A stretch of 52,919 bases of DNA, filler included, from Perkinsus olseni (lineage: Eukaryota): NCBI GenBank assembly GCA_013115125.1. It is 3 parts of 3 records of this genome, joined end to end, with 100 filler letters (N's around TTAATTAATTAA, not from the genome) between each part and the next. Parts side by side here need not be neighbours in the genome. Positions count along the whole stretch, not along the records: positions 35,391 to 52,919 come from JABANN010000642.1; 2 more parts are not named here. The stretch is one strand, 5' to 3'. Both the position numbers and the translations under genes were made by a program. Shown piece by piece: positions 11,294-52,919 of the stretch (within the stretch, counting starts at the first letter, position 1; each line of letters starts with the position of its first letter). The notes under the pieces were generated by a model that was given only the letters and a program-made list of their open reading frames with translations, searched no databases and had not been told where the DNA came from.

Positions 11294-11295
<2 letters not shown>

Positions 11296-12273: not shown

Positions 12274-14942
<2,669 letters not shown>

Positions 14943-14998
14943 CCACTCTGTATACTTGCCGTTAGACAGTCATGGCTTCCATTGGACCATGTTGACCG

Positions 14999-25748: not shown

Positions 25749-25954
25749 AGATCCGGATGATACAACTAAGACTGAAACAAGCCCTTGATGATACTGAACT
25801 CAAAGCCGCAGCGATGGGGCATATCGATCAATAACAGACGCTGTCCCATCGGGGACCGCCGAGGCACTGAGCTGAGAATTGCAGAAAATGTCAGCAGCAT
25901 TATTAACAATTATCAGTCAGAATCTCCTTACAGAACCGTGGACAACTTTGAAGC

Positions 25955-29333: not shown

Positions 29334-29944
29334 GCTTCGAGTGATGACCCGCGTCGAGAGTGAACGCGAGAAGAAGGCGGTGCGCATCATTAACAGAGAA
29401 CGATGTGGTAAGGGTATCAAAGGCTGTCGGACGAACATGATTAGAGAGCATGGACAAGCGTCGGAAAATCGTTGCGATGTTGCTGTGTGGTGTGCTCTTG
29501 TACCAACCACCAGTGGGAGTGCTAACAACGGCAGTCTCCCAGAGACAGAGAGTCCCGAAGGATTCAAAAAAGCGCTCACTGTGAATGGGGGCGTCGGTGC
29601 GAGGATGCTGATTGCACTCGAACCTGTCACTCGGTGCTCGGCGGTATCGCGACCGGTCACCTGAATAGTGCGACTGTGCACCAGATTACCATGATTTCAT
29701 AGGAGATTCTCCGCAGAAGCCAAACGAGATGGCAGGCTGCGGCTGATAGTGTTCAACGAGCAGGTCGAGGGCGTGGCCCGCGAGATACTACAGAGCAAAG
29801 TGCACGCCTGCCATCGGGAGAGGAGAAGTTGCGTTGGATGTAAAAAGCGCGCGCCCCGGCGCGCTCTGTGAACTTCCTTCGCAGACAGGCAACGAGAGAC
29901 GTTCTCGAGTGGAAATCACAGGGGAGTCTCAGGTTGATATTGAA

Positions 29945-34792: not shown

Positions 34793-35290
34793 ATGCAGCA
34801 TACCTATGCGCCATGCTCATCTCTTTCAACGCATTCAGCTAACGTGGAATACGTTCAATCGTGTTTAGTTTTACTTCATGATTTTGCATGCCTCCTTATC
34901 TGTAAACGCATATGATGTTTAGCGCGCTTGTTTTTGTTGAGTTGTAGTTTGTTCTCGGAACTTCGCTTGGAGCCCAAGTTAGAGGCCAAGCCTTCCCCCC
35001 GTGCCTGGATACGGTTGAGCATATAATCGCTCTAAGGGAATCATATAGAGGGTGACGCTGAGTACGTGAGAAACATCTGTTCATGGAGACTGCTTCATAT
35101 CCTCGATACTTGGGAATGAGCATCGCAGCAGACTGCTGCCAGCAGCGCGACACAGACTGGGTCGTTGCTCGACCGGCTGTTCTCCTCTGGAGGCACTGGT
35201 TGTAGCACGGAGGAGATCGGAGCTACACGTGCGCCGCCGAGGGATTGGCTTAGGGCTTGAGTGAAAGCTTGTGAGTGCAATCTGTCATTC

Positions 35291-35390
35291 NNNNNNNNNN
35301 NNNNNNNNNNNNNNNNNNNNNNNNNNNNNNNNNNTTAATTAATTAANNNNNNNNNNNNNNNNNNNNNNNNNNNNNNNNNNNNNNNNNNNN
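35291..35390. other. Artificial contig spacer (N44-TTAATTAATTAA-N44)
   Basis: Identical to the spacer at 17625-17724. Confidence 0.97.
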
Positions 35391-35669
35391 GGTATAGATA
35401 TCCTCGACCCCCATATAGGCAACAGCAACCTTATCCGCCAAATAGACTTCTGAATGGTATAGACCGTAGCCGTACTGTCGCCCATCTCCATCATGCGCTA
35501 ATCCTGGGATCAACCACTATATCACTTATATGGTATCTTCTATTTTATGAACTCCTCGCTCAACCTCATCGATGGTATCTTCCATTATGGGCTACATCCA
35601 AGGGAATTCTCGCATATTCCATACACGATATCTTTTATTTCATGAAATCCCAGCTCAACCTCGCATATT

Positions 35670-36079
35670 ACTCCTGGCCCGCTAGAGTATGCTTCCAAAT
35701 CATCCATACTATCAACAACGTATCTTGCAACAAGTTTTAGGGGATCTTCAGCGTCCGTCAGGACCTGAATGGATCCGTCACGGCGCCTCAAAATCATCCA
35801 TCCTCAATTTTGTGGCGCACGGTAATATCTGACCTCAGCCGAAGAGAATCCTCCATTCTTCATAACCTCAGCCACGTGCCCTTGATTCACCAACCAGCCG
35901 AAGAATCTTTTGGTCGTTTCGTCATCCTTGCATTTCACATTGACCTCGTAGATAACCTGAAAGTATCTTTCATAAGACTTTTGTCCCGACCTCGAAAGAT
36001 TTCCGAGAATTTCCGAATTCATCATGGAAAATATTACCTGCGTTCCGGCGGGACAGCATCCGACTGACCGTTGAGACAT
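35670..36079 (-). CDS. Small DUF4286-like (dimeric alpha/beta barrel) protein; 3' end uncertain
   Basis: MSQRSVGCCPAGTQ|VIYEVNVKCKDDETTKRFFGWLVNQGHVAEVMKNGGFSSAE|VLTDAEDPLKLVARYVVDSMDDLEAY matches the IYxV..W...H..EV...GF.SA...Y...S.EDL..Y pattern recalled for DUF4286. Confidence 0.5.
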
Positions 36080-36884
36080 GACACCAAATCTTCCGCGTGC
36101 GAGGTGGAAGATACTCGGGCGAACGAGCATCACAACAACTATTACTTGAAAATTTCCTACCAAATTTTCCGTCTTAATACCTTGGATCAATGATGGTGGC
36201 CAGAGAGATACTCGATACTACCACCCTCATAGAGATTGATAATCCATAGTGAACGAACGAGAGTGAAATTACCGCTGCGCCACGAAAATACACTTTTGAC
36301 TCCTCGATCCTTGTTCTCTCGACTCATTTGATCTGAAGGCCGACTTTAAGAAGCTCAACCTGCTAATGATGATGGCACTGGGAATCTTACATACGCACGA
36401 AATTCAAGCATAAGTATAATTCTTACTTCGAAGACACATACTGTACGTATCTTCGAGATCAATACTGACCTGGCTCCTACTTGAAATTGATGACCTCTCA
36501 ACAAGATACCCAGTTTGTAACAACTTGTACCCCAGAGGAAAGCTTTTTGAAAAACAGTCCGCGTATCAATCGCTACAGAGAGCCCCAACCACTTTTTGCA
36601 ACTTGCTCGACTACGAAGGACCCCCAGAACCATGCATGAGCGCGGAATTTGAAAAATGGCCAGTTTCCCACTATATTGAACTGGGAAAACAGAAGCAGGA
36701 GAGTATTGAGAGTAACAGTAGTAACGGAGGCTGGTAGCGGAGTGCTTTAACTCGCCACAAAGATAACACGCCTTCACGCACCCTCACTGTTATTGTTGAT
36801 GATGCTCCGGAAAATAGTAGTAATTGTTGTTGTCTCTAAGAATAGTAATACATGTAAAATGTCGATTATCGTTGACACCACAAG

Positions 36885-39443
36885 CTAGCTTGACGGCGAT
36901 CCATCCCTATTGTGTAGATCCTCGATCGATGGCTCCGGTGGTATCTCGCTTGAGGACGGCCTGGCCTCAGGCGAGTTTGGTGGTGCCGTGCTCGAAAATA
37001 CACTCCGGGGAGTTGTGAAATCATCAGAGGGAGGAGATGACGAAGACAGTGATGGTGACGGTAGACGACCAAGGCCAGCTTCGATGAGCTCCTCCGGAGG
37101 ATGCTGGTTGGGCGGGATGTCCGGACGCACATACGGCACCTTCAAGGCTTGCTGACGATATTCACCAGACCACTGGTTGAAGTCAAATTGTGTAATTTTG
37201 CTTCTTTCCATGTCGATCTCGACACACGTCCTCGACGGCAAGTAAACAGCCACTCGGAAATGTTGTTGTTCCAAGTAGAGCCAGAACAATACCGTACCAA
37301 TGAAAAGAGGAACCATCAAAGGCGAGGCGACAGCACCCTCCTTGATAGCTAGTACAGCCATAACGGTGATCTCAGCCACGATCTCACAGAAAATAATGAA
37401 ACGCATCGCCCTCGTCCACATTTGGCCTCCACTATCATGACTAGGATCATAGATAAAAGCATACTGATTCTTATAGATCAGGGCCTCACACGCAAAAGCA
37501 AACGCCATCACAAATGCAACGATCGGCGAAGTCACCGCGTAGACGAAAAGAATCATGAAAAACAACGTGACCGTAGATAGCAACGCTGGTTGGTCCAAAG
37601 TAACCGGATTGGTCAACGGCTGAAGACCGAAGAAAGGCTGGCTTCTCTCTTTCTCCGTTAACTTCGGACCCAGCTTCTCTCGGATGAGGGCCTTCACGTA
37701 AGGTGTGTAACGTAGTAGCTCGGCGCCGAGCGGTGGACCAACTTGTACGAATACAAAAGACATAAAGTAGTTCGACTGCTGCGGCAGGTTGTTACCCAAA
37801 ATATCCTGGATCGTGCCCCAGGGGTCAACGGAAAGTTCGTGCAAACTCGCGAGTAGACTACCAGCGATGGCACTGACAAAGAAGGTCTGTATAATATAAA
37901 AGGCAGCCAGCTTAGCAAACAGAGAGGCGTTCAACGCCGAGTTGGAAATATGTCCTTCCAGCTGCGAGAACAGCTTCAGGAAGACCACCAATAGGGAGTT
38001 GAGAATCGCCAGAAGGATAGGGGAAATCTGCTGAAGCAAAACGTCGATACCGGGCCAGGCTTCCGACCAGTCCTCCAAAAAAGGCAGCTCCTTCTTCAGA
38101 TTCTGAACTTGAGAAACCGAAGATACAAACGCTACCGGTACCGTCCAAAACACGCACAATACAACCGTAAGAACAATAGAAAGTAACATGCCCAACTCCT
38201 GTCTCATGTGCGGCATACCAACATTATCCCAAAACACATCATCGGGCAAGGGGGCCGGCATAGCACAGATTTTGAACGGCGTACCAGAATGCAGCATCTG
38301 CAGGGCGGACATGGAGGCCTTCAGGGACCGGAAAGTTACAAAACCGTCAGCCCTGACCTTGAACTCGGGCTTGTCACCAAATGGTAGCAAATTGGTCGGA
38401 TTCAACGCTTTTGGGAGAGGAACAATATCAGCGACATCTTTGACGATGTTAACAGGAGCTTTGGTAAGATTCTTCAGCTGCCCTGTAAGACCCTCTTCAA
38501 CCTCGACTTCCTTATCGAATCGCACTTGGAAGAGTTCATCAGCCTTCTCCTGGAAATCCTCAGCCGATCGAACCGTCCTCTCACAATATCTGTTCAAAGC
38601 CGCCAGTCGTCTCTCCAAAACCGTGATGGTGTCCATCTTTTCTTTGCCGCACATTTTCACTTTCATCTCGGGACGCTCTCCCTCGTACTCGGCCACATTG
38701 TAGGCATGCTCAAGCTTCGGTATTATCTTCGATCTCTCAGCCTCCTGTTTCTCGAGCTCGTCGATATCCAACGCCACACGAGCGTCCAAAACCTGGCCCG
38801 GGGCAACGTCTTCGAAGAAATTCCTCAACGCACGATTCGAGCGCATATCTTCTGGCAAACCACGAACAAAAACCGTATAGTTGTCCAACCTCATTCGCGC
38901 AAGATACTGATGTCTCCGACTAAGATACCAGCTGAACTCATGATAGATTAGGTACATGGAGTAACCGTAAAAGACATAGGAGGCCAATAAAGTAGCAATC
39001 AAGGCCGTGTCACCATTCAGAAGATTCCCCAGACTCCAAGATTGCATAGGGTCGCTTTCTCCAGGACTCTTCTCACGATCTTGATACTTGTAAATCGGTA
39101 TAAGATAAATTGAGTTAAAACAACCCACACACGATATTTTTACCCCCATTCTCAACATCCTGATAAAGGCAGCCGCATCGAGACCAGCATATGCAACCAG
39201 CTCATCATCACTGATCAGGACCGCGTTCCGTATCCATGACCATTTTCCGGTTTTTCTATCAGATAGAGGACAACTGAGCTCAGGGATATTATCTCGACAA
39301 TTATAAAGCTCCGGAGCCTTGGACTTCACCAGACAGTACACCAGGACCATGATGGCAAAGATACCAATGTAGATTCCAAAGGAAATCAAGACGGCCATGG
39401 AAGTGGTGGTCTTACTCGACCCGTCAGAAGAAGAGTCGGCCAT
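36885..39443 (-). CDS. OSCA/TMEM63 (CSC1/ERD4/RSN1, DUF221) mechanosensitive cation channel, 852 aa, intronless
   Basis: GLDAAAFIRML, YTVFVRGLP, GFVTFRS, APLPDDVFWDN, FWTVPVAFV, LPQQSNYFMSFV, YKNQYAFIY, DSGGQMW; multi-TM. Confidence 0.93.
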   Translation of the reverse strand: MADSSSDGSSKTTTSMAVLISFGIYIGIFAIMVLVYCLVKSKAPELYNCRDNIPELSCPLSDRKTGKWSWIRNAVLISDDELVAYAGLDAAAFIRMLRMGVKISCVGCFNSIYLIPIYKYQDREKSPGESDPMQSWSLGNLLNGDTALIATLLASYVFYGYSMYLIYHEFSWYLSRRHQYLARMRLDNYTVFVRGLPEDMRSNRALRNFFEDVAPGQVLDARVALDIDELEKQEAERSKIIPKLEHAYNVAEYEGERPEMKVKMCGKEKMDTITVLERRLAALNRYCERTVRSAEDFQEKADELFQVRFDKEVEVEEGLTGQLKNLTKAPVNIVKDVADIVPLPKALNPTNLLPFGDKPEFKVRADGFVTFRSLKASMSALQMLHSGTPFKICAMPAPLPDDVFWDNVGMPHMRQELGMLLSIVLTVVLCVFWTVPVAFVSSVSQVQNLKKELPFLEDWSEAWPGIDVLLQQISPILLAILNSLLVVFLKLFSQLEGHISNSALNASLFAKLAAFYIIQTFFVSAIAGSLLASLHELSVDPWGTIQDILGNNLPQQSNYFMSFVFVQVGPPLGAELLRYTPYVKALIREKLGPKLTEKERSQPFFGLQPLTNPVTLDQPALLSTVTLFFMILFVYAVTSPIVAFVMAFAFACEALIYKNQYAFIYDPSHDSGGQMWTRAMRFIIFCEIVAEITVMAVLAIKEGAVASPLMVPLFIGTVLFWLYLEQQHFRVAVYLPSRTCVEIDMERSKITQFDFNQWSGEYRQQALKVPYVRPDIPPNQHPPEELIEAGLGRLPSPSLSSSSPPSDDFTTPRSVFSSTAPPNSPEARPSSSEIPPEPSIEDLHNRDGSPSS

Positions 39444-39822
39444 AGTGTATGTGGACAGAGAGAAGAAGGAGACGCACTGAACCAGGATTCGGAAAAAATA
39501 CGGAAAATTTAACCAGAATAAATTTTCCGTCGCTTTTGGCCATCGAAAGTTTCAAACGAGGAGTGTCCTCACTCATGATACTTGAGCTCCCTTGAGCTTC
39601 CTTAACTTTTAGGTTCTCCAGAAATGTTACGGGCTAGGTCAGTTCCAACTCCATCAAATCTTTCATAGGGGAGGATGGGGACATCCCACACAAAAGCTGC
39701 AGTGCGCCGTTCTCGTGATCACGAGACTCCGTCACTGCGCCACAAAATTCGTCTCTCCCGTGTAGAGCCTTCCTCCCAAACGCAAAGGAAAAAATGTCAA
39801 AATTTCCGCACGTCCAAAAATT

Positions 39823-41216
39823 TTACTCTGACTTCTTTTTCTGGCCGAACACCCCGACACAGTAGCTACAGACAGGAGTACCGGTAACCATGACCTGAGA
39901 AAATGCAAGATTAGGCAAGATTTCAAGATGCATGGCACTTACCACAATCGACATGACTGCGATCGTGAGATGCAGCGCGTGGGTGGCGGGACAAATCGGT
40001 GAGGATTTTCCGCAGAGGTCATGATTAGGCATCCCGGGAATATCCGCAGCGAGATCGGACACGTATCTTCGAACATCGTGATAAGCATGCTCAACCTCAA
40101 GATTCGAGTATTTTTACTTTTCACAAATATTCAACGTGAACAGATTGTCCGAAAATCCAGAGCGTATCTTCCACTTTGCGCAGAGCACGCTCAACCTCAC
40201 GGGATTCACTGTTTCCGACGAGGGCCTATGGTCCACCTAGTTTTGATAAAAGCTAGATCTACACAAGGCGTATCTTTCGTGAAGGGCATGCTCAACCCTT
40301 CATTCACAGATAAAATACCCTCACGGGGATTCGAACCCGGGACCTACTCCGCGCCAATCATAGTAATCAGCATCCACAGCGCTCCAACAACCGGCTGGAA
40401 GAAGATACTCATCGCGCTGGCAATGTGCGCACAGCCCATAATCTTCATCAGCTGCGGCACGGTCGCAATCCCACAGAACTTCATGGCGTCCTGCAAAATC
40501 TAATTTCGAGGCGCGCGAGAAAAACGGATCATCCTTTCACCTTCATGAACTCGGTTTTGGCAAAGTAGGAGTAGGCCACCGGAAGATATGCCTGGAGATC
40601 CGACGGAGCGATGTCGTACGCACAGGCAATATTGGCGATGCCAGAACCTGAAAGAAGATGAAGAAGAATAGATCGGAATTGACATGAAAGATACGCGATT
40701 GAGGTCAAAGATACGCCATGAGATTGAGGTCAACGATACGCCACGAGGTCGACGTGGAAGATACGCCACGAGGTCGAGGTCCAAAATACGGCACGAGATT
40801 GAGGTCAAAGATACGGCATGAGATTGAGGTCAAAGATACGCAACGAGGTCGACGTGGAAGATACGCCACGAGGTCGAGGTCCAACATACGGCACGAGATT
40901 GAGGTCAAAGATACGGCATGAGATTGAGGTCAAAGATACGCCACGAGATTGAGGTCAAAGATACGCCACGAGATCGGAGTCAAAGATACGGCATGGAAAT
41001 AAGGAGCTAATTGAGCAAACGTCGATGAGTATCCTTCATGAGACATCTCGATATGCATTGAGTGGAGAGGGTCGAGTAATGAGCATGATACGATACCCGT
41101 GTGACGTCGTGAATATTGTTACCAAGGAAGATGATCATTAATCCGAAGTAGCAGCCTACGGCCACTGTCTGGAAGATGAACTTGACCATAACAACGGAAG
41201 AAGAAGAAGCTGACAT
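39823..41216 (-). CDS. Small DoxX-like multi-TM protein with C-terminal dilysine (KKKSE*), five exons
   Basis: Spliced: MSASSSSVVMVKFIFQTVAVGCYFGLMIIFLG|SGIANIA...FMK|ILQDAMKFCG...IMGCAHIASAMSIFFQPVVGALWMLITMIGAE|YVSDLAAD...VMSIV|VMVTG...FGQKKKSE. Family call is by motif resemblance only. Confidence 0.6.
40311..40347 (-). pseudogene. tRNA-like 3' half (T-arm/B-box) starting at an intron donor
   Basis: Minus strand: GTAGGTCCCGGGTTCGAATCCCCGTGAGGGTATTTT, first bases of intron 40347-40067. Confidence 0.65.
40687..40994. repeat. Intronic 25-bp minisatellite (~12 units) with a 100-bp higher-order repeat
   Basis: Unit GAGATTGAGGTCAAAGATACGCCAC plus variants GAGGTCGACGTGGAAGATACGCCAC and GAGGTCGAGGTCCAAAATACGGCAC; lies in intron 40648-41122. 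Confidence 0.95.
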
Positions 41217-41728
41217 CACGACCACTCTCTTACGTACTAATGATAATACTCACATATCTTCTACTGTATGCTATATACGTTATTCGTATCTTTAGGTCGC
41301 CCGCGCAAGTTTTACTGTATAAAGATACTCACATACATATATTGAAGCGTGCATCACAATTACTCAATAATTAACATATCCGCTACCATCACCCTCTCCC
41401 CAGGGAAAGGAAATTCATTCTTTGTTCCCTATTCTACCTTGACCCGGCGAGAGGCGGAAGAAAACAAAACCGACTGCGTGACGCACGGACGCAAGAACGT
41501 CTGTCATCCCGCAGGGACCTGCCCTAGTAGCACAGCTCCGGGGTTACAACCAGAAACACAACGGTTGTCCCCACAGGGCAGAAGGGCCCGAGTGAACCAA
41601 CTCGAGCTGCGGATGGCGAGTGAAAGCCATAGAAAAAACGATACCCGCTCATCATTCAACTGAACACAACTGAGAACTCAAAACTATTAATAAACGGAAA
41701 ATTATCAATCGTAAAATTCAACTCGACA

Positions 41729-44700
41729 TTATTCGTTCGGCCCCTTCAAGGACTCACCTTCTTCCATATTGACCAATTTCTTTGATCGTTTCCCGCGCGC
41801 CAGAAAAATATAACAACAACTAGCCAGAAGGAGACCGGCGAGCAGTCCTCCTGACGACGCTAGAAAAATCGCCAGGAAGTTATTCGATCCAAATCGATCA
41901 AGTGATCGATTCTGACATTCGGCCTCATCTGGGACCAGAGAGCGGAGATGATCCAGAACCGACGTGACGTTACAAGTAGATCTGAGAAAGACAAAACTCG
42001 AGGAGCAGAAGTCTATTAGAATAAAATCTTGCAATCTTGAATTTCCTCAAACTATGCCACAAGCAAATCTTGCTCTCTCTTACTTCCCTCGGCATTCCTG
42101 GACGCCATCCGCTGTGGCAACTCGGCCGTTGTAAATAAATCTTGCCGAATTGTCGGAATAAAACTCCACGATGAGCATTGACCCAAAAGAAGGCCAAATC
42201 GATGAACATAACTTACCCGAATCCTGCCCTGAACGGAAACCAGATGCCTTTCACCGCGCCACAAAATTCTTCACCGCGCCGCGAAATTCGGATGGGAAAC
42301 TACTGGAGGGAGGCAAGATAAGCTCCTCTCGTGCAAGTGCTATTTGGCTATCCCAGCAAATGTGATGTCAGAAACCACGGGTGAAGAAAGCACAAAACCA
42401 GAATAATTTTCCCCTTACATCGTAGTCCTAATGCGGAGAGCATTTCACCCATCGGCCCCGTATCGTGACCAGAATAAAGAGAGAAGCTGCGGCCCGAGAT
42501 CGTCAAGTCGTTAAAGACATCCTGAGAAAACGAAGTCATGCCACCAAGGATCTCAAAACATGAAAACGGGAAGCACGTCGAAGCTTTCTCTTCGACCACC
42601 TTCGAGGCAGTAGTCGATTCTCAACCAAAGACGCGTCTTGGAGATCAGAAGAAGCATGAAGACTGTCGATTGCTTACTCGGATGAGCGGCCCGATCGAAT
42701 ATCGCAGTAAATCCGGAGTGACTTGATATCGACCGATGGACCAAAACCTGCAGAGTAGTCGAAAGGTCCCTGGTTCGAACCCCACACCCGATAGTCCGAC
42801 GAACTTGAGCAAGAGACACGCTCACATATCAAAGAAGGCAAAGTTTTCCCCATACACTCCCACGTTAGTCGTGAGAAGGTCTGTAGCCAACCGAGAGGCC
42901 CCTGGTTCGAACCCTGCTCACGTCGCTTCATTCACTATATGATTCCATAAGTCACCGCCAATCTCTAATCCAGTAGGCAGCTTTTTCGGCTCACTCGGTA
43001 CGGTAGAGCAAGCATGACTCATCAGACAGTCCTGAATATCTTGCAATCTCGCATTTTCCCAACGCAATCATATTACCAGCATCCTCCCATAAATCTTGGC
43101 AAGGTTAGCCGGGTCGCCGTTCATCCAAGCGTCACTGCGCCCCGTAATTTTCCCGATTTTCTCTCTCATTCTTTCCGAGTTCTTCACATGCTCTCTGGCT
43201 TCTTTCGACTCCAAGAAAACTCTCTCTGCCGCAGAAAATGCTGGACAAACCTGCGAAGAATTGATCGAGTAATTCCGTCACGCGCCACGAAATTCCCAAC
43301 GCGACTCACATCCGGATTCGGCTCCATACCATCCACCGTACGGTCTGGTACAACAACTTCAAAGGCTGTGTTATTTCCTGAGGCATATCAGGTATTGCAA
43401 TTTCGCTCGCCCAAAATTATCAAACCGTCCAAAACACGCCCTCACTCGAAGATTACGCGGTGGATGAGGACTCATTGAGCATGACACTGTAACGCTGATC
43501 CAAAGGCATTCCACATCATCTATCACACGACCGCGCGCCACGAAATTCGCCCCCGCCAGATGAGACGGCATCACCATCATCATTCGGAAACATTCCCATC
43601 GTCAAGGCTTGCGCGCTCTCGATCGTCCGAGGGCAGTCATCCGCTCGTATCATCACCTTGGGGTTAGCCGGACTCTAACGGAAACGAATGAAGAGAGTTG
43701 AGACTACGGGGAGGGGAGCTCACCTTGTCCAGTTTGAGCGCTTCGCCATAAGCGTTTCTCAATGCTTGTCCATTCGCTATTTGCATGTCAATTCCCGAGT
43801 CAACTAATTGGCCTAGAAGAAAGGGAGCAGGGATAGAACCATGGACCTCGGGAATGGAAGTTAGTTGAGTTGCCCACTGCGCTATTTTACCTAATATACA
43901 GTTGCCACGGAGGCTGCCGAGGTCGCCGCGCACTCGTAAAAACTTCGGAGAGAAGGAACCTTCCAATCGCTCATAGCCGGAAAACGTTTGGCTGCTGCAA
44001 GAGTATCTGAGGTTGAACCATGCAGGATACACAAAAACTCAGCTGCACCTTACACCGTTTCATCCCCCTCCCAGCATCCTTTACTCTGAGTCAAAACTCG
44101 ACTACCATGGCGAACGAAAGTCAGGACGCGAGACTGAAACAACACACCACCACACAGCATACTCGATCCCTCGCTTGGAATGGTAGGTCAATCCAAAGGT
44201 CTTTCCGAAGGGGTCCGAGGGTTCCTAGAACCAAAGGGGTACGGAGATGAATGATAACTGCAAGCAATAGCCCACAGCACATTGACCTATCCACCCAACC
44301 GAGGGTCTCTAGAATGCGCGTCTTATCTGAACCCCTGTGTGTTTGCCGTAGAAACTTTTCACACGCACGATCCAAATGCACAGGCTGTCGTGGCAAAAGG
44401 ACAAAGTACTGGAGCGCGGCCACCGAATCTCGTTGAAGCGATTTCGCCTCTAGGGGTGGCTCCAGCGGCTGAGGCTTTCCCTATACATCGTGCTGTATAT
44501 GGTACGATCGCCACGTCTCTCAGCACAAAGGGTTTCATCGAACTCGGCTGTATCGGGAATACCCCTACGTAACCCTCTCTGTTCCCCCGGCCGCAACAGG
44601 TGTGAGTGACACTGGACACTAAGTAGACATAGGAGGAAGAGCATCCCCAAACGGCCTTGGCAGCACAAAGCCCCGGACCCGATGCTGCTCCCGTATGCTA

Positions 44701-45081
44701 ATCAACAGAGGTAAGCCTGTCGTTTACCAAGTCGATATTATCATCACGCCCCTCGGGATCGCGAAAATAGCACTACGTCAACTGGGACGATGAAACGTTG
44801 AAACAACTCAAGTTGATGAGGATTTGTTGCGCGGTGTCACCAACCACCCTCAAAGTGCCCAAAATTGCAATTTTCTAGGGGAAACAGTAATTTCTAGTTC
44901 GACTGAATTAACAAATATTCCCATCCATTCCAACTACTACCACTGTGCTGCCTCTATTCCCCACAAATGGCGGTGTCGGCCATTTGAGATCTGCGTGACA
45001 GTAATACAGCGGCTCATCCTCGGGGAAAGCCTCGATGATGGGGGCACATAGTAATAGTGGAAGAAGGAAGGTTAACAACAT
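41729..45081 (-). CDS. Histidine acid phosphatase (lysosomal/prostatic type), signal peptide and C-terminal TM, multi-exon
   Basis: MLLTFLLPLLLCAPIIEA...GNRGSTV|SRVLTFVRHGSR (RHGxR), CILG|QLVDSGIDMQ, IRADDCPRTIESAQAL, SIGPLIR, FSLYSGHDTG (HD), TM LAIFLASSGGLLAGLLLASCCYIFL. Confidence 0.88.
42760..42792 (+). pseudogene. tRNA-like T-arm/B-box element, antisense in phosphatase intron
   Basis: GAAAGGTCCCTGGTTCGAACCCCACACCCGA. Confidence 0.6.
42890..42921 (+). pseudogene. tRNA-like T-arm/B-box element, antisense in phosphatase intron
   Basis: CCGAGAGGCCCCTGGTTCGAACCCTGCTCAC; ends exactly at the minus-strand donor. Confidence 0.6.
43813..43890 (-). pseudogene. 78-nt intron that is a full-length degenerate tRNA-like sequence (A-box and B-box at tRNA spacing)
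   Basis: GTAAAA TAGCGCAGTGG GCAACTCAACTAA CTTCCAT TCCCG AGGTC CATGG TTCTATC CCTGC TCCCTTTCTTCTAG. Confidence 0.65.
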
Positions 45082-46833
45082 GATAACTGGCACATCGGCC
45101 GACACTATGATCACGAGTATTGTACTGTTTATACCGCTGATCCCATCTTGCTCGCTGAGCTGAGCTAAAGCGTAGATCATCTACGTCACTTACGTCATCT
45201 GCGGTAGATGACGCGAAGACAATAGGTCAATGATGGGATCCCAGATAGCAAGACCCGGGTATTGTATTCTCAATGAGCGATTATCTTTGACTATCTTTCC
45301 TTGGCCTCTTCGAACCGTATTTCTATTCAGCTTCTCAATAATCATCTACTTAAGAGATGTTCTTGAGTAGACGATTATTGTTGCATGATTGTATTATTAT
45401 GATTGCAGCTGCTGGATATCTCTGTTCCGAACAGAGATACCCAGGGGCTGCCCTTCGAACTAAACTCCCAAGGTTTGGGCTTACCCTCGACAGCGACTAG
45501 AACGACGTACAGTGCGAACCAAACCGTTATGCAAATCACCTTTTGTGAGACAACTTGCTCTATAAGGAGAGTTTATAAATGGAACTCGAAAGGTGTACTG
45601 ATAATGAGAGAGAAAATCGATTGACACCGTTTCAGAACCGTTTCATCATCCATCCTTATGTTACGAGCGCGCGAAAATTTCCGGACCCTGCCGACCGACC
45701 CAAACCGTTGTACACTGTGTATGGTTCCTCTTCGCTCCGCTGGGAGAGTCTCCATTCGGGATAGAATGGAATTAGCAACATTCGTCGCTGGGTCCTGATG
45801 CTGTCAACGTTCAGCACACACCGGTGTCTGTTTGATTGCCTGCCCCTATATTGCTAACTGAGATTTTACCCATCCGAGATCACCCTCAGCTCCACCTCTC
45901 GAAAAGTCGCTAACTCAATATCTGTCAATATCCGGAGTCAGACACCGTATGACCAAGTAGTATCACCGAGGCCTGGGTGTCAAAATCTGCGAAATGCGTT
46001 GATTCCACCACCCCCTTCACTCACCCGAAGATTCCTGCATCTCACGATCTCTCTCGATGGGCCTAATAAACCATGCAGGTGAAGTACTAGCAATTACTAC
46101 TGATCGGATAGTAGCGCGCAGTATTATGGGCACCAGACGAGGCATTAGGTATGCCATACCTACATGTCTAAGGATGTTATTAACAAGACGAGATTGGGAC
46201 GTACGAAAGGTATGGTCGTCGGCCCTCTCATGAGCGTTACAACCACAAGGCCCCTAGCTCAGCGGACTCCACCGAACACAACTTCCAATAGGAGCATCCT
46301 CCATATTGGAGATACAAGGACGACAAAGACTCATGATGGAAAAGCCTTGCTAAGTGAGTATCAATAGACAGAGCGAGAAGTACAAGTACGGGTGAGCTCT
46401 TGTAAGCACCCGAGTCTAGAAGGAGAACGACCACCTCCAGTCTGAATCGAGCTCCGCAGACAGAGGGGCGTCAACGTCTCAGAGGATGAAACGCTACGAA
46501 GGCTGATCCCCAACGTCGGAGCGAATATCTGTCAAGCCGCTATCCACTGTTCCCGAGCCAAAGGCTCTTCCCCAAGTCGGAGATAAACCGGCTATCATAC
46601 GAAAACGATCAGCTCATTGGGGTACGTGATAACGAGAACCACGAAAATAGAATGATAACAATAATGACAACCATTACAACATCATCAACATGGAAAGGCA
46701 TCATAAGAGCTGAAAGAAAGTCGGAATTGAATAGCGAATCCATGGAGAGTGACGCCAGTTCACAAAATGATAGACCACCTCAATGCCAGTATAATACCAT
46801 AACTTCCCCAAATCACAATAACTAAGACACTGA

Positions 46834-47247
46834 TCACCAAGGGCATTCACCCGGGCTCAAGATTTGGGGGTTTGCCTCGACCGACATCTGGATGGTATTA
46901 GTTTGCCAATAGTAATCATACTTGAAGAAATCATTGTCGTCGAAGTGGTAATTTGGGCAGTCATCCCTGACCTCCCTCATGAAAGCATCGTATGCCTCTG
47001 TGCTACTGTTGTCGATCTCATAATGGAAAGGGGTAGTCTCTCGGACGTGGACCTTTCCCAATGTCCTAACCTCGGTCACACAGTTGAATAGGAGGCTGAT
47101 GTGGTCACCCTCGAACCATTCCACCTGAATGCACTCAAAGAGAGGGCCGAGTATTTTGAAGTACTTCCCTCTTGGTGGACCAGCTCGTGCGAGTACCGGT
47201 TGGAGTGGTACGATAAGGGAAGCGCAGAGAACAATAAGGACCAACAT
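46834..47247 (-). CDS. Small secreted hypothetical protein, intronless
   Basis: Signal peptide MLVLIVLCASLIVPLQPVLA followed by GPPRGKY and a Cys-containing ~120-aa domain. Confidence 0.65.
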   Translation of the reverse strand: MLVLIVLCASLIVPLQPVLARAGPPRGKYFKILGPLFECIQVEWFEGDHISLLFNCVTEVRTLGKVHVRETTPFHYEIDNSSTEAYDAFMREVRDDCPNYHFDDNDFFKYDYYWQTNTIQMSVEANPQILSPGECPW

Positions 47248-47481
47248 GACTGTTAATGATGCCTGAGGAATGTTTGGACAGTTGAGGAAATGCAAGTGAG
47301 TTCAAGAGAGCCAAGATTTCTAGCAGGTGTTTATGTAATAGAGCATCGATTGTGGGGCTAATTAAGCACTTCTCATCTGGCAACCAGACTGTCACTTGCC
47401 CGTAGAGGCGTTAATAGTAGGATATCCGAGGTTGAAGCTGGTTAGATACAGAACAGGTTAAGTTGTGAGCTATTGTTGTTA

Positions 47482-50400
47482 ATGATCCGTCCTCCACTCT
47501 CGATCTTTCTTTCTGTCATAACAGCCACACTTGCTGCTGCTGCAGCTGACAACGAGTGGCAGACTGTGACAGCAAAGTTCAATCCGAAAACTAACCAAAT
47601 TGTGTACAACGATGTCAAGTTCGCTGGCCCGGAAGTCTTGGACCACACGCACTTCGCCTTCAATACGATCATGACGGTCGTCTGTGTGGTAATGATAAAA
47701 CCCTACAGATTTACTATCTTCCATGGACCGAATCTTTCATACTGGACGTATGCACGTATGGGTCTTAAAACTCTGTGAGATATCTTCTTCCGTACTCGAT
47801 ATTAGGTAAGGAGGTTATGCTTTTCTTAAGTACTTTGTCTACCATTGCGTACGAAGTGGGAGTTGCATGCCTAGTAGAATGACTAATGACGAAAGTTAAG
47901 CATTTATTGAGCTAGTATGTGCACGTCAACTCCGAGCATGCGCGCCGTCTTTTGGAGGTATCTTTTATTCATGCTGGTTTCATACATAATAACCTCGTTT
48001 CATCTATAGTCCCATTAACTCGAGCGTATAGTTTTTACTTTCGTCGTTCATGCTGTTCAGATCTGTGCTGCTCTAGCCTCCGGTTTGACGATGGGATTGG
48101 TATCTTTGGACGACTTCGACCTTCGAATACTGATGGAATCCAGTGAGGATGATGTGCCCGACCCTGCTGATAAAGCTGAGATGAGAAAGGAGAAGCAAGC
48201 TGCTATTAAGTTGTAATATCGACCGTGTCGTCGCTGGCCCTTGTTTGTATTCCCCTTCTTCGAAAACCTTCGCTGTGCGCTCTTCGTGGTATCTCTGACC
48301 GATTTCAGCTGCCAAGCTTGTGTATCTTGCGGTTTGCGTAGAGAGCGCTCCCCCGTGCGCATACAAATGCTTTTTTGTTCTATCATGTCAGGCATCCTTT
48401 GATCTCTCGTCACCATCTCCTGCTTGTGACTTTACTTTTGGTAAACTCGTTGGCAAACGAAGCTTTGCCGCTTTTCCTGGACCAAATAGTACCTCCATAC
48501 ATGGCAGTGCTGGTGTCAGTCACACTGGTAATAATAAAGGGGATATCTTGCACGCGTGCGCAAAATCTTCCGAGTGCGCTCCATTGATCTATCTGGAGTT
48601 GTACAAGAGTGCGTTACTGGTCTTCTCTTCGAAGATTTTCATGAGGGCTGGGGAATCTTTACTGTGCGGGCTGAGTATCTTACCGTTCGTATGCCCATCA
48701 GGTGTTAGTATTTGGCGAGATAATCCCATCGGCGGTATTCACAGGACCAAATCAATTATCAATAGGAGCCGCCTTCTCACCGTTAGTCAAGTAGTGCGGG
48801 ATGGGTGTCGGTGCTGGGATTCGAACTCGGGGTCTCGTTTGGACTTAAAACTGCGGTATTAGGGCGCCTCGAGGTTCCGGGGGTCGTCATTCGTACTTGT
48901 TGACACGTGGGTTCGCAAATAACACAGAAAATGTGTATCTTTCGATCGAAGTTAGACTTCCCCACGAGTTCCGATAGAAATGACCCAACCGGGGTTCGAT
49001 CCAGGTTCATGATGATAGTCGTTTACCCAGTGGCGGGTCCGGTCGCCTGGTGCCTCGATAAGACGCTGGGAGAGGAGCACAAGGGACGGTACAATAAGGC
49101 GGAGTTCAAGGCGTTGTTGAACTTACATCAATATGACGACGTACTGGGAGAGATATCGGGTTCGATCCTCGGTGAAGGCATTCTCATCGCTTTTATGGCT
49201 TCTCTGAACTGAGAATATCGCGCCAGTTTATGTGCGGACAACGAAGGGTCTAATGAGTGGTTGATAGTCGGCTATTAGATGTCTTCGAAATGAGCGTTGC
49301 GCACGTTGAAGGATTCTGAAATTGGTGATGCTTGGTCGCTCAGACTGGAGATGTTGATATAGAGACGGGTATAAGCGGTCAGTCTTCACCTTTGGATACC
49401 CACACGACGACAGGGGGAGATGGTCCAACCGGGAGAGGGGAAGTCCACCATCATGTAATGAGCGAGGTCGTGGGTTCAAATCGAGTCGGGGGAAAACGAA
49501 AGTTCACGTCATTTTCGCGTCCACGATTTTGCCTTTAACAGGGAAGTGAAACTTCAAGTTCTAGTTCGGGAGTGACAATTTCGGAGAAGCATAATCACGA
49601 TTCGATCCTCGCCACTTGAAACTTACAGTAGTCCGCAGATGTGCTCAGGTTAGAAATTCTAGATGACCTTCTGACAGCCGGGCCGAGTAGTCGACCTTTT
49701 ACTACGCCAAATGGGTTTCCATAATTCTGAGTTCAGTTCTTGTCGATCGACTTGTCGATTTTGACGGAGAACTAGCTCACTGGGAATGGAAGACTTCACG
49801 CTGGATTTACTGTTCCGTTGTGATTTTATTTGCGGATAACTCGGATGGATTCTGGTCAGGTCCAATTACACTCCCGCGGTGGCATCACGAAGGAAGAGCT
49901 CCGAATGATGCAGGGGGCGTTGGAATTACATCGTCTCAAAGTAAAGGATGTAATGACGCCGTTGGACCAGGTAATAGGACGCGACCTGGTGGGATAGTTT
50001 ACACGGATATAGACCAGTGAAGGAGATGGAGATCCTTCCAGATTGGTATCCGTAAAAATTTAGTATTGATTCATGCGAGTTGGATGAGCCTTTTCTATCC
50101 TGGATGAGAAGGGCATATCCAATTCGGACAAATTGCCCAAGGATTGTGAATCGCAACTCCGCAAGTGGGGAACAACTCAGAGTGAATTTCGTTAAAACTC
50201 GACTGACGTATGAATGATACCGTTGGCTTTCTTGTAGGGGGCTGCAATCGTTGTGGAAGAGAGGGCTCGTTGAATGATGTGCGGAAGGAGTGGTATGGTT
50301 TATAATCTTAGTCCCCCCATGTTGTGTAGTATCATGTTAGCACATCAAAGAATACGAGCGCTGATGTGTGGGTCACTTCGAACTTGTTTATAGTTCATGA

Positions 50401-52500
50401 ATTATGGAAGATGCCCTATCTGCCTAATCGGTCGGAATGGCGCGCGCTTTGTGCAACTCAGGTAGCAATGTATTCAGCGGACCAAGTTCTGGATTCCAAG
50501 ACACTCCAGGATATCATGGAGAAGGGTCATTCGAGATTGCCGATTTACCAGGGCCATCCACACAACGTAGAAAGGCCGGGGGTGGGAGTCGAACCAGGGA
50601 CCTTTGGGATGAGAGTGTTGAGCAGGTGCATGGCATGCTGCTCGTGAAGCGTTTGATTGTTTTAAATCCAGAAGATAAAGTACAGATAGGAAACACAGAT
50701 TTGTTGGAACCGATGGTAGGTGACCGGGAGAGCGCTTTCCGCTTTTCGTAATTTAGCAAAATTGTGAGTTGGGCGGAGCGAAGCGAGTCGTGCTTGTCAG
50801 ATTTGCGATATGGATACTACGCTGCTGGATATGCTCTATGAATTTTCAACTGGCAGAAGCCATTTAGCAGTAGCGACGGATGATCCTGAGAGGGTAGAAA
50901 GTTCATACCAACTTTTTCGCGAAACATGGCGCATCTTTTCAGGTTATCCAAGCCATCCACGACGACAAACAGATTCCGTGCAATATTCACATGGCGGGAA
51001 TCATCACGTTGGAAGATGTGATTGAGAGATTGATAAAACATGACATTCAAGGTAGGCGTTAAAACGTTTGGATATAATAGCGTAAAAAAATCCGGGTGAG
51101 GTCAGCCTGTTCGAAGCGGGCATGAAGATTGTATCCGGTCGATGTATGGCTAGACGTACTGCGTTTGTTATGGGAGTGTGTTACGTCTCAGCGCATCTTA
51201 AAGTCGACCCTGAAAGATACAAGTGAGGTCGATTTATTTTCAGATGAGAGTGATATATCAGTGACGTTGCAACCTGTACTGCATCTACCGACCTCGAGCG
51301 GGAGCAAGATCAAGATGTAAGATATTCTCGTTTCGGGTTGGAGAGCATTCCTACGTACGTGAAGATGAGGTCGGGATTCCGAGCTGGTCCTGGATGCCTC
51401 TTTGGAAGGCATAATTTCATTCCATTTTGCCCTGGGACGAGTAAATTCCGCACAATATCGACCCGGAATATCTTTCTGACGCTCCCACCCTTTGGAGATC
51501 CACGTGATGTCTGGCAGTCGCAGTGGCTGCAGTCATCGAGAAGCAACCGTTTCGTTTGGAAATTTCCTGTTCTTCGTAACGGATCGGCGGTAACGTCCTT
51601 TTGCCGCCCTGGTGTACTCCGTTTTCTGTTCTGTGTTTACTACATGTTAACTATGTGTTAACTTCTCTCTCCGTTCACTGACCTTCATCATTGCTACATC
51701 CTCGTCGTCATGCTCCCAGAAAATGGCCTCTCTTCTTTAGAGAGGCAATGTTCGACGTTTGTCCAGAGAATCGAGCTATGCCGTGTACGCATCTTTGTTC
51801 ACTCGGATTGGCACCCGGTCGTTATGGCTGTCGGTGGAATATTCATCGTCATTTGTGTTGTTCCTGTCAGTCCCCCTTCCCCGCGTGGTCGTAGCATCAG
51901 GGTTAACGCCCCATCGGGTGTGTTGTCGATAAAACATCAGCCGGCTAACGGAGTTGGAAGTGGGTCTCACTTCTCTTCTGAGTATCTTGAGATGCTTGTT
52001 ATTCTAGGGTCGACTTCGGCGAAGGTGTTGCACTCCTCGTCATCGCAGGCGGGCAAGGAGAGTCCCTCACTTGTGGTGAGTAGCTGGTTAAGACTCGCGA
52101 TCTTCATTTGAGAGGTCCCTGGTTCTATCCCCGCTCGATGAATTTTGCCCTCAGACGCCTCTGCTCAAGGACGCGTCTCCTATGAATCACAGTCCGATGC
52201 CGGTAATCTCCGAGTCATCGCCAATGTCGGGCCACTCGGCGTCGTCATCGAAAAGTGAGTCGATCGCTTCGATCTTGCTAATCTTGCTCACCTTACAATT
52301 CCTCTAGGCAAGAAAAACCCCTCTGTTGGCCCCTCAACGTTGCCACCGAAACCCATGGCGTCTCCCGAATTAGGGAAACAAGGAAAAAAGGACGTCAAAA
52401 ATACAGGAGGTGAGGAGGTATCTTGTTTTCCGTGAAGAGCATGGGGAACCTCGATAGTTGTTCTGGTGGAGCAACTTTCTCGGAATGGTTATGACTACTG
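47482..52500 (+). CDS. CNNM/DUF21-CBS domain membrane protein (metal transporter family), multi-exon; 3' end approximate
   Basis: Signal peptide at 47482; CAALASGLTMGLVSLD, HHLLLVTLLLVNSLANEALPLFLD, YPVAGPVAWCLDKTLG, MQGALEL..KVKDVMTPLD, GHSRLPIY, GRSHLAV, GIITLEDVIERLI. Confidence 0.88.
48802..48856 (-). pseudogene. tRNA-like 3' part, antisense near 5' end of CNNM intron 48791-49004
   Basis: Minus strand: GCAGTTTTAAGTCCAAACGAGACCCCGAGTTCGAATCCCAGCACCGACA. Confidence 0.5.
49141..49182 (+). pseudogene. tRNA-like T-arm at the start of a CNNM intron
   Basis: GTACTGGGAGAGAT ATCGGG TTCGATC CTCGGT GAAGGCA; T-stem still pairable. Confidence 0.6.
49455..49496 (+). pseudogene. tRNA-like 3' half at the start of a CNNM intron
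   Basis: GTAATGAGCGAGGTCGTGGGTTCAAATCGAGTCGGGGGAA. Confidence 0.5.
50567..50625 (-). pseudogene. 59-nt CNNM intron filled by an antisense tRNA-like 3' half
   Basis: Reverse complement: CTCTCATCCCAAAGGTCCCTGGTTCGACTCCCACCCCCGGCCTTT; exons join as GHPHN|VHGMLLVK. Confidence 0.65.
52073..52154 (+). pseudogene. 79-nt CNNM intron (52076-52154) resembling a decayed tRNA-Glu(TTC)
   Basis: GTG|GTGAGTAGCTGGTTAAGACTCGCGA TCTTCAT TTGAG AGGTC CCTGG TTCTATC CCCGC TCGATGAATTTTGCCCTCAG; exons join as SPSLV|TPLLK. Confidence 0.65.
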
Positions 52501-52851
52501 TGTGAGTCGGCTAGCCCTGCGTATACATTTTGGGAAAAACAAAGGATTTTTCGGTGTATCGAAGAACGCCATTACGAAAGCAAGAAGTTGGTCCTTCGTG
52601 AGCTTCCCGGCCACCTGCAATGCGTTTTCGGTCTCTACTGTCGACGACGAGCACTGTCACTGAGTTGATTATCGTATCCGTCGCGACAGCATCACGTTGA
52701 TGGCGACACGGGTATGAATCATGTTGTGACGGTGAATGATCATGCACGAGTTGCGGGTTTTTTGAGAACCAGCAGTGTGTGAGCAGTTTAGATCTGCTGA
52801 AACGCTCTTTCACGCCGGAAGCGTTACTCGGATCGAACACATCTCTTATGC

Positions 52852-52918
<67 letters not shown>

Positions 52919-52919
52919 G
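52852..52919. repeat. (TTG)n microsatellite at contig end
   Basis: More than 20 uninterrupted units up to the window end. Confidence 0.97.

Follow-up and report, generated by a model that had tools for sequence, protein, structure and literature searches.

A recurrent T-arm/B-box-like module in a spliced 79-nt intron of a Perkinsus olseni DUF21/CBS gene

Results

The window, by which we mean the whole stretch of Perkinsus olseni DNA analysed here (52,919 nucleotides, filler included, from three contigs), carries near its end a gene for a DUF21/CBS (CNNM-like) protein with an intron of 79 nt in its 3′ part (52076..52154, plus strand; GTGAGTAG...TTGCCCTCAG), where the protein tail is poorly conserved. 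Upstream of the intron lies the exon 52008..52075 (+; ending in …STSAKVLHSSSSQAGKESPSLV), which was assigned by identity with residues 432-453 of protein model P0002, and downstream of it the exon 52155..52254 (+; TPLLKDASPMNHSPMPVISESSPMSGHSASSSK), which was placed by the gene models and P0002. The next intron (52255-52307, +) is delimited by a contig piece that starts at 52308. The 79-nt intron has U2-type GT-AG ends, with the donor GTGAGT at 52076-52081 and the acceptor TTTTGCCCTCAG ending at 52154, and 52076-52154 is the only GT-AG solution that matches P0002 across the junction. All six P. olseni protein models that reach the junction join 52075 to 52155, reading SL[V/T]|TPLLKD (the P. 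marinus model P0004 stops short of this region and is outside this count), and these models probably share one pipeline, so that they are not independent witnesses of the splicing. An earlier note had pointed to GTG|GTGAGTAGCTGGTTAAGAC from 52073, TCTTCAT, GAGAGGTCCCTGGTTCTATCCCCGCTCGATGAATTTT, a T4 run and a CAG ending at 52154; all of these were found in place, and its intron length of 79 nt agrees with the gene models, the P0002 junction and the lengths of contig pieces.

In the RNA-like contig X2 record 12, the piece that starts at 52308 stands at record position 505, and the sum of the preceding pieces (64+108+75+89+68+100 = 504) fits this record only if four intervening introns, including 52076-52154, have been removed. 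The DUF21/CBS gene is spliced in RNA-like contigs at a minimum of 11 GT..AG joints among the 15 of 26 joints listed, 10 of these 11 being seen in four of four runs and the joint 50714>50800 in three of four. The joint 52075>52155 lies outside the 15 listed, and its RNA support is thus the arithmetic of the piece lengths. If the intron were retained, the frame would stop at the TGA at 52109-52111, and 79 is not a multiple of 3; excision restores a frame equal to P0002. We conclude that 52076-52154 is a genuine and apparently spliced intron, with its removal evident in the gene models and supported indirectly by one RNA-like contig. Its acceptor CAG is preceded by the T4 run (52143-52146) and a pyrimidine-rich stretch (52143..52151, +), as read from the sequence, which may represent a polypyrimidine tract or a former Pol III terminator. 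The intron was already known from public gene models, and Perkinsus introns are mostly shorter than 100 bp with GT/AG ends, the shortest reported being 39 bp, according to PMC3101222.

The 3′ half of the intron contains a copy (52104..52139, +; nhmmer E=3.6e-08) of a T-arm/B-box-like module of 25-36 nt (AGGTCCCTGGTTCTATCCCCGCTC), with a 15-mer core at 52113-52127 and the B-box-like GGTTCTATCCC at 52121-52131. The nhmmer profile was built from six copies, of which this one is itself a training member. The recurrence of the module is not due to chance: the 15-mer core AGGTCCCTGGTTCGA was found with at most 2 mismatches in 6 copies within 12 kb, compared to 0.13 expected, and none of 100 shuffles reached 6. 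Likewise, GTTCGANNCC occurs 7 times (1.81 expected; 0/100 shuffles reach 7), once within a true tRNA. Of the three contigs in the window, a single one of 17.5 kb holds all six strong copies. Among the 26 introns modelled in two neighbouring genes, 5 carry the module, three copies being sense and three antisense to the host gene. Both copies in the 174-nt intron 42748-42921, whose joint was seen in 4/4 runs of RNA-like contigs, are antisense to the host gene (profile and gene model); one (42756..42791, +) lies 8 nt from the acceptor end, and the other (42888..42923, +) has a 3′ tail GCTCAC that is the reverse complement of the donor GTGAGC. Another antisense copy (50576..50611, -; profile) fills most of the 59-nt intron 50567-50625 in the same gene as the 79-nt intron, and the joint 50566>50626 was observed in all four runs. 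A sense copy (40320..40348, -; profile) comes right after the donor (GTAGGTCCCGGGTTCGAATCC) of a 281-nt intron (40067-40347) that is taken from the gene model, the comparison with RNA-like contigs having covered 41100 and above. An A-box-like TTGGCGCGG beside this module at 40331 was rejected, as it is coding sequence (MIGAE). The remaining copy is described below.

The cores are alike at 83-100% between copies, whereas the flanks are unrelated. The B-box consensus GGTTCGANNCC, with 9 specified bases, is present exactly in four of the six copies; the other two, including 52104..52139, have a T in place of the conserved purine (GGTTCTA), so that GGTTCTATCCC departs from the consensus by this one change. 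T-stem pairing, as read from the alignment, amounts to 2-4 of 5 pairs across the six copies and to 3 of 5 in the 79-nt intron. The intronic location of all six copies is by itself uninformative (chance about 0.10), because introns make up approximately 68% of the 10.2 kb over which the two genes extend. The distances between modules and splice sites are shorter than a uniform placement would give (p=0.016 for the six strong copies and p=0.002 for nine copies, both post hoc). Three introns have a splice site immediately next to the module, and the relation between splice site and module differs from intron to intron.

The earlier note had interpreted the intron as a complete but decayed tRNA-Glu with the splice donor inside its A-box. 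This reading was not borne out. With default settings ARAGORN called 3 tRNAs elsewhere in the window and none at 52076-52154. The Rfam tRNA model (RF00005) gave no match at the gathering score (29 bits) around the intron, nor did it match the unit at E<=10 when searched on 451 nt, on the whole 52.9-kb window or on 87 nt. A cloverleaf designated tRNA-Glu(ttc) was called at 52071..52142 (+) only at -ps85, with 2 mismatches in the acceptor stem and 3/5 pairs in the T stem, and this setting yielded 10 calls in the real window (3 of them the true tRNAs) versus 6.25 +/- 2.2 in 40 dinucleotide shuffles, which places the cloverleaf at chance level. Folding was no better than that of shuffles (z-scores 0.09 and -0.03). 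The A-box consensus TRGCNNANNGG was sought approximately 30-60 nt ahead of the B-box; it has 17 matches in the window, none of them in 52060-52112, and TAGCTGGTTAAGA fits it only if a deletion is assumed. Set against a panel of 10 tRNA or tRNA-like 5′ halves, the 5′ half of the unit was equalled by 87/1000 shuffles, and the best alignment was out of register. An 11-copy profile of a second intronic motif family (AATTTYGTGGCGCR...) gave no match at E<=100 in the unit's 5′ end (GTGGTGAGTAGCTGG), and membership in that family was rejected. What stands of the proposed tRNA resemblance is the T-arm/B-box-like segment in the 3′ half; neither the cloverleaf nor the 5′ half nor the anticodon region rises above chance. 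The similarity to the tRNAs of the window was marginal: the best local alignment to the three true tRNAs covers only the T-arm (17/22 bases, against tRNA-Met), and its score was equalled by 56/1000 shuffles. Taken as a whole unit, 52076-52154 carries no tRNA signal above chance.

The sixth copy (43823-43856) resides in a 78-nt modelled intron of a histidine-phosphatase-like gene (43813..43890, -). The model of this gene, P0009, omits exactly 26 in-frame codons corresponding to 43813-43890; the stretch is open in frame, and its joint lies outside the 15 listed. An A-box-like 11-mer, TAGCGCAGTGG (43874-43884), is located 44 nt upstream of the module. The earlier note had regarded the two introns as sharing a sequence variant, and indeed exactly two occurrences of GGTTCTATCC are present in the whole window, one at 52121-52130 (+) and the other at 43831-43840 (-), compared to 0.04 expected from shuffles, of which 0/100 reached 2. 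Between 52076-52154 and 43825-43849, 23 of 25 bases are shared (92% identity over 25 nt). Beyond these 25 nt there is no relationship between the two introns: 1269/2000 shuffles scored at least as well for the 5′ flanks and 1865/2000 for the 3′ flanks. The 3′-half segments are related beyond chance; the further proposal of a second complete tRNA-like unit forming an intron finds no support outside the 25-nt core. A branch-point role of the shared TTCTAT variant was discarded, since by eye no fit to yUnAy or CURAY was obtained.

Outside the window, a 22-mer pattern of the module was found at 7 metagenome loci, at 6 of which it follows, as we read them, an A-box-bearing tRNA-like 5′ half. ARAGORN with default settings called 0 tRNAs in these 7 loci. 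The metagenome scan yielded only tRNA-like repeat heads of other organisms and no Perkinsus-like copy.

Discussion

The interpretation that we consider probable is that 52076-52154 is an ordinary spliced U2-type intron carrying a passive, tRNA-derived repeat relic. In such a scenario, a short module would descend from that portion of a tRNA, or of a tRNA-derived element, which comprises the variable loop, T-arm and B-box, and a copy of 25-36 nt would have come to reside in the 3′ half of a 79-nt intron that existed independently of it; the T-run and the pyrimidines behind the module would now act as the tract ahead of the acceptor. A passive role seems plausible because a T stem does not appear to form, the intron lacks a tRNA fold and its 5′ half is not tRNA-like, and the occurrence of the module in both orientations speaks against a role at the RNA level. 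More than 500 copies of five tRNA types are described for P. marinus in PMC3706591, so that tRNA-derived debris is to be expected. Several observations count against an ordinary intron that merely hosts the relic. Once a 36-nt module is subtracted from an intron of 79 or 59 nt, hardly enough sequence remains for an intron that was there before, the combination of similar cores and unrelated flanks is unlike a simply decaying full-length insert, and the modules lie close to splice sites, which in three introns directly adjoin them.

Alternatively, a mobile, tRNA-sized and tRNA-derived unit could have inserted into coding sequence and become the 79-nt intron in the manner of an introner. The donor would then have arisen in the 5′ part of the unit, the T-run and trailer would have become the acceptor region, and 43813-43890 would represent a sister insertion. 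In line with this, both introns are tRNA-sized (79 and 78 nt), both hold a sense module (36-41 nt to the donor, 12-18 nt to the acceptor), and both have the derived GGTTCTATCC variant with the following GCTC; furthermore, other introns also have modules at their splice sites or close by, the short introns would be too short without their module, and the A-box of the sister unit stands at the correct spacing. However, outside the 25-nt core the two introns resemble each other no more than shuffles do (1269/2000 and 1865/2000), and the 5′ half of the unit is neither tRNA-like (87/1000) nor part of the other intronic motif family. The boundaries show neither a target-site duplication nor a terminal inverted repeat, splice sites are placed differently relative to the module among introns, and half of the copies are antisense. 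We regard an element-made intron as unsupported and this origin as unlikely. A broader variant is likewise unlikely, namely that short tRNA-derived modules seed or delimit Perkinsus introns, with the T-arm end and the T-run supplying or attracting splice sites; the 79- and 78-nt introns would then be whole copies with diverged 5′ halves, and the modules found at the margins of longer introns would be traces of original insertions.

It is also conceivable, though improbable, that the module is an element selected at the DNA level, such as a B-box-only TFIIIC site (ETC-like), a site for another protein or an intronic Pol III small-RNA unit. Such selection would account for the conservation of the B-box and approximately 10 nt on each side without T-stem complementarity, for the sharp contrast between conserved core and unrelated flanks, for the presence of both orientations, for the concentration of six strong copies in one 17.5-kb contig, and for the T4 run behind the 52104..52139 copy. 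Yet two of the six copies have a T at the conserved B-box purine, 52076-52154 lacks an A-box, and there is neither a match to an Rfam family nor a stable fold; moreover, common descent from one non-pairing master copy would give the same pattern. Finally, that the module represents a short local repeat without any relation to tRNA, with a coincidental T-arm likeness, would fit the failure of tRNA models to score it, the incomplete pairing of its T stem, the mere 25 nt or so common to the copies and the marginal likeness to the tRNAs of the window (56/1000), but is very improbable given that an exact B-box of 9 specified bases in 4/6 copies would hardly be expected of a random 25-mer, that 6 of the 7 outside loci with the 22-mer are tRNA-like heads with A-boxes, that the A-box of the sister copy is spaced as in a tRNA, and that 50576-50611 aligns to tRNA-Met from the anticodon loop to the T loop (32 nt), a score equalled by 12/1000 shuffles.

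With the passive relic as the preferred reading, the 79-nt intron as such matters little, as tRNA-derived debris in introns is common and this intron is a fairly ordinary repeat relic. What deserves attention is the recurrence of a well-kept B-box/T-arm module in both orientations, tending to intron edges and set in unrelated flanks. Should this pattern hold across Perkinsus genomes, it would bear on intron gain at the base of the dinoflagellates, a lineage in which introner-like elements are known from Amoebophrya. The literature that we searched, as far as its retrieved portions go, reports no tRNA-like introns, introners or SINEs for Perkinsus, the P. olseni/chesapeaki genome paper not being among the results.

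Among known systems, the ETC ('extra TFIIIC') sites of yeasts consist of a B-box only. The module is similar in that it keeps the B-box consensus although no functional tRNA surrounds it; it differs in that 2/6 copies have a changed B-box. We know of no ETC sites described in Perkinsus.

Introner elements have been described in Amoebophrya (PMC7789003) and, as cited there, in Micromonas and Aureococcus. The Amoebophrya elements are, like the module, intronic repeats at or near splice sites in an early-branching dinoflagellate relative. Unlike the module introns, which have canonical GT-AG splice sites and share only a 25-nt core without such repeats, they show whole-intron likeness and usually inverted and direct terminal repeats. 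Introns alike over their whole length were not found in the window, where the two closest copies have flanks no more alike than shuffles.

Dada transposons target the amplified tRNA genes of P. marinus, and their target TAGCTC lies within the A-box, according to Kojima and Jurka 2013 (PMC3706591). These tRNA genes belong to the same genus, and their hundreds of copies make a plausible source of debris. The unit 52076-52154 has a TAGCT followed by what appears to be a gap relative to the usual D-arm, which is reminiscent of this target. In contrast, no Dada sequence or transposase is present near the 79-nt intron, and PMC3706591 deals with intact tRNA genes into which transposons of several kb have inserted rather than with short intronic T-arm modules.

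With respect to intronic tRNA pseudogenes and fragments of tRNA-derived SINEs, the differences are that module copies share just about 25-36 nt, without a tRNA-unrelated body, a tail or a target-site duplication, and cluster in a 17.5-kb contig near splice sites. Full-length copies, as expected of a SINE, were not seen in the window, where the 25-36-nt core alone is shared, and the borders of 52076-52154 and 43813-43890 show no target-site duplications, the TAG shared at the sister intron being too short. Nevertheless, the module resembles such fragments in its B-box/T-arm-like core, which falls below the thresholds of tRNA finders, in its placement in introns in either orientation without a stable fold, and in the occurrence of its 22-mer in A-box-bearing tRNA-like heads of other organisms.

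The 79-nt intron in the CNNM-like gene

The segment 52076-52154 (+), in the third contig of the window, is almost certainly an intron of a gene for a DUF21/CBS (CNNM-like) protein. It consists of GTGAGTAGCTGGTTAAGACTCGCGATCTTCATTTGAGAGGTCCCTGGTTCTATCCCCGCTCGATGAATTTTGCCCTCAG between CTTGTG and ACGCC, with a GTGAGT donor at 52076 and a CAG acceptor ending at 52154, and it has the features of a spliceosomal intron. Perkinsus introns are reported to span 39-1622 bp and to be mostly <100 bp (PMC3101222). A GT/AG intron of 79 nt is typical of the genus. The letters quoted in the earlier note for the proposed tRNA-like unit at 52073..52154 agree with the sequence. The translated flanking exons are identical to P0002, a P. 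olseni protein of 528 aa (hypothetical protein in NCBI) from a cluster of 8 proteins with Pfam PF01595 (DUF21) and, on some members, CBS-domain names. 52076-52154 is the sole GT-AG pair that gives P0002 across this junction, and if the intron is retained, translation from the upstream exon meets a TGA at 52109-52111, where the stop-to-stop frame 51662..52111 closes. The same junction of SL[V/T] to TPLLKD (in context, ...KESPSL[V/T] joined to TPLLKDASPMN...) is present in all six P. olseni models that reach the region (P0001, P0002, P0003, P0005, P0006, P0007); P. marinus P0004 and the MMETSP transcript ORF P0008 stop short of it. All six are computed models that probably share one pipeline, and they are therefore not mutually independent.

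RNA-like contigs from four public runs, aligned over 41100-52840, are clearly spliced. Among the 15 joints listed of 26, the CNNM-like gene has at least 11 GT..AG joints, ten of them in all four runs and 50714>50800 in three, and 52075>52155 is not among these 15. The lengths within one contig, X2 record 12 (795 nt, depth 7.2), support the intron indirectly. It is joined at 50892>50942, with 64 nt on the shorter side, and at 51049>51242, with 75 nt on the shorter side, and its piece 52308-52598 begins at record position 505. The first three pieces (64+108+75) and exons of 89, 68 and 100 nt add up to exactly 504, so that introns 51317-51870, 51960-52007, 52076-52154 and 52255-52307 must all be missing from the contig. 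Together with the six models that join the exons, this bears out the earlier claim of a 79-nt intron. Two of the runs have loose ends at 52414, consistent with the next donor at 52415. Elsewhere in this gene, P0002 lacks two exons (48392-48526 and 48701-48790) that are present in spliced contigs of all four runs, and for the 59-nt intron 50567-50625 it uses a donor at 50582, adding ERPGV, where the contigs use 50567.

Comparison of the unit with tRNAs

The unit had been read as a decayed tRNA-Glu with the donor inside its A-box, and neither part of this reading was upheld. With default settings ARAGORN found no tRNA at the unit, and its three calls (tRNA-Gln, -Ser and -Met) all lie in the first and second contigs; the Rfam tRNA model at its gathering score returned just those three from the window and, at E<=10, had no match in the unit region on 451 nt, the whole window or 87 nt. 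The sole match within the 87 nt (11.8 bits, over the T-arm) came from a family that also matches true tRNAs in antisense. When the ARAGORN threshold was lowered to 85%, a tRNA-Glu(ttc) was called at 52071-52142; its acceptor stem has two mismatches and its anticodon stem one, the D stem is weak, and three of five T-stem pairs form. At this threshold the real window gave 10 calls, including the 3 true tRNAs, versus 6.25 +/- 2.2 in 40 dinucleotide shuffles, which marks the cloverleaf as a chance product. An A-box pattern with 17 matches in the window had none within the unit. Nor did similarity to the window's three true tRNAs rise above shuffled controls: the best local alignment (17/22 bases, to the tRNA-Met T-arm) was equalled in 56 of 1000 shuffles. 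The 5' half of the unit, compared with the 5' halves of these tRNAs and of seven tRNA-like loci, aligned out of register and was equalled in 87/1000 shuffles. RNA folding of the unit and the intron gave z = 0.09 and -0.03 versus shuffles, with a predicted structure other than a cloverleaf. On the defining features tested, the unit falls short of a tRNA or a recognisable tRNA pseudogene and, within the window, also of a SINE and of an introner.

A repeated T-arm-like module in introns

The segment GAGAGGTCCCTGGTTCTATCCCCGCTC of the studied intron belongs to a repeat, a T-arm/B-box-like module of 25-36 nt that lies here at 52104..52139 (+). Within two mismatches, AGGTCCCTGGTTCGA has six copies in the window (0.13 expected; none of 100 shuffles reaches six), all in the third contig, at 40331 (-), 42764 (+), 42896 (+), 43834 (-), 50589 (-) and 52113 (+). 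A profile of the six gave E 3e-08 to 2e-05 for these copies, its own training members, and E 0.04-0.8 for weaker look-alikes at 9418 (+), 48836 (-), 49005 (-) and 49157 (+), interspersed with true tRNAs. GTTCGANNCC occurs seven times (1.81 expected), once inside a true tRNA, and the exact B-box consensus is kept in four of the six module copies. A proper T stem is impossible in all six (2-4 of five pairs, counted from the alignment). The copies have non-pairing letters in common, which suggests that they derive from a single master that had lost its function beforehand and did not decay six times separately. Weaker T-arm/B-box look-alikes with other stem sequences occur in three more CNNM-like introns, at 48815-48836 (-), 48988-49005, 49157-49176 (+) and 49462-49482 (+); in introns of this gene, CGGGTTCGATCCTCG is a weak look-alike 16 nt past a donor and GGGGTTCGATCCAG one that forms an acceptor.

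All six strong copies are intronic. Joints or length arithmetic back four of the introns, and gene models are the sole support for the other two; relative to the host gene, three copies run sense and three antisense. An intronic location by itself is weakly informative, because introns make up ~68% of the two genes and all six copies would fall in them by chance with a probability of ~0.10. The copies lie closer to splice sites than under uniform placement (p=0.016 for the six strong copies, p=0.002 for nine including three weak ones; both post hoc with small numbers). The module-bearing intron 40067-40347 has the donor GTAGGTCCCGGGTTCGAATCC, the donor GTGAGC of intron 42748-42921 is the reverse complement of the module tail, and in the RNA-supported intron 48791-49004 the CCAG within a weak T-arm look-alike serves as the acceptor. 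The relation to splice sites hence varies between introns and does not form a single architecture.

The closest relative of the studied copy lies in 43813-43890 (-), which model P0009 of a histidine-phosphatase-like gene (minus strand) omits as a 78-nt intron. This segment is open and in frame, has no RNA joint among the 15 listed of 26, and contains an A-box 11-mer, TAGCGCAGTGG, 44 nt upstream of its own B-box. The variant that the two were said to share is real: a G-to-T change at a conserved purine (GGTTCTATCC) is common to the 52113 and 43834 copies (2 matches, 0.04 expected). Their proposed kinship stands for a core of 23/25 common bases, whereas the flanks outside the 25-nt core are at shuffle level, both 5' (score 12.0 versus 12.3 for the null; 1269/2000 shuffles at least equal) and 3' (8.0 versus 9.8; 1865/2000). 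Either the two introns are not copies of one whole-intron element, or the core alone was kept. The earlier reading of 52076-52154 as a second complete tRNA-like unit forming an intron is not supported.

Other features of the window

Another motif that recurs in the window, AATTTYGTGGCGCR with (C)GGTGA/GTGACGG behind it, has nine copies within two mismatches (0.35 expected) and 11 by profile (E<=0.0015, for the profile's own training copies), at 9318-9331 (-), 35782-35795 (-), 35806-35819 (+), 36276-36289 (-), 39736-39749 (-), 40502-40515 (+), 42255-42268 (-), 42275-42288 (-), 43136-43149 (-), 43281-43294 (-) and 43534-43547 (-). Gene models place five copies within four introns of the phosphatase-like gene, and RNA-like contigs also support one of these introns (43251-43309); one copy is coding, and the copies at 35782 and 35806 are inverted relative to each other with 10 nt between them. 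Candidate readings of the motif are the end of a repeat, a binding site and a relic resembling an A-box; the 5' half of the unit is unrelated to it.

At 47468 (+), 45088 (-) and 41211 (-), contig ends have letters in agreement with the spliced leader of Perkinsus at its 3' end (...CTTGGCTCAAG; PMC3101222), beside sequencing-adapter letters, and these positions are likely trans-splice acceptor sites. The 41211 site and a splice junction at 41121 fall inside a 1771-nt 'intron' of P0009, so this public model may fuse two genes. Just downstream (minus strand) of 41211, within the long modelled intron of P0009, is a tandem array (40643-41040; 25-nt period, ~16 units). In each of the four runs several contigs cover the 59-nt segment 44474-44532, with loose ends at 44474 and 44532 and flanks unlike the window on both sides; the segment may be an exon common to paralogues or other haplotypes. 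A (GTT)n microsatellite (52838-52919) runs to the window end. The filler runs at 17625-17724 and 35291-35390, N around the all-frame stop linker TTAATTAATTAA, separate three joined contigs (~1-17624, 17725-35290, 35391-52919), and features are not readable across the joins.

Discussion

We consider 52076-52154 to be probably an ordinary intron, removed by splicing, in which 25-36 nt are the passive relic of a tRNA-derived element; the T-run and pyrimidines behind the module would now stand at the position that calls for a polypyrimidine tract. Short introns, which leave scant room for a pre-existing intron, the tendency of modules toward intron edges, and a core conserved far above its flanks fit poorly with a purely passive relic and keep two other explanations alive. 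That the element itself created the intron is unlikely, and that the module has a conserved role at the DNA level, for example as a candidate B-box-only TFIIIC site, is somewhat less likely still. A module without any tRNA connection is improbable given its B-box, the match of copy 50576-50611 to tRNA-Met (32 nt, running from the anticodon loop through to the T loop; 12/1000 shuffles), and the metagenome contigs in which its 22-mer pattern has seven loci, in six of which it lies behind an A-box-bearing tRNA-like 5' half (sequences read by eye); such an arrangement is characteristic of the heads of tRNA-derived repeats in other eukaryotes.

The intron was already known from public gene models; what is new is the module family, a modest observation. 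The one lead worth following is the genome-wide spread of the module relative to intron edges. Among the papers available to our literature search, none treats Perkinsus introns that resemble tRNAs, or introners or SINEs of this genus. Introner-like elements are reported for Amoebophrya (PMC7789003). For P. marinus, five tRNA types are reported to number >500 copies, and Dada transposons to have inserted into them (PMC3706591); the tRNA gene population of Perkinsus is unusually large and dynamic, which makes tRNA-derived debris likely in this genus. The segment 52076-52154 works like any short intron that carries repeat debris.
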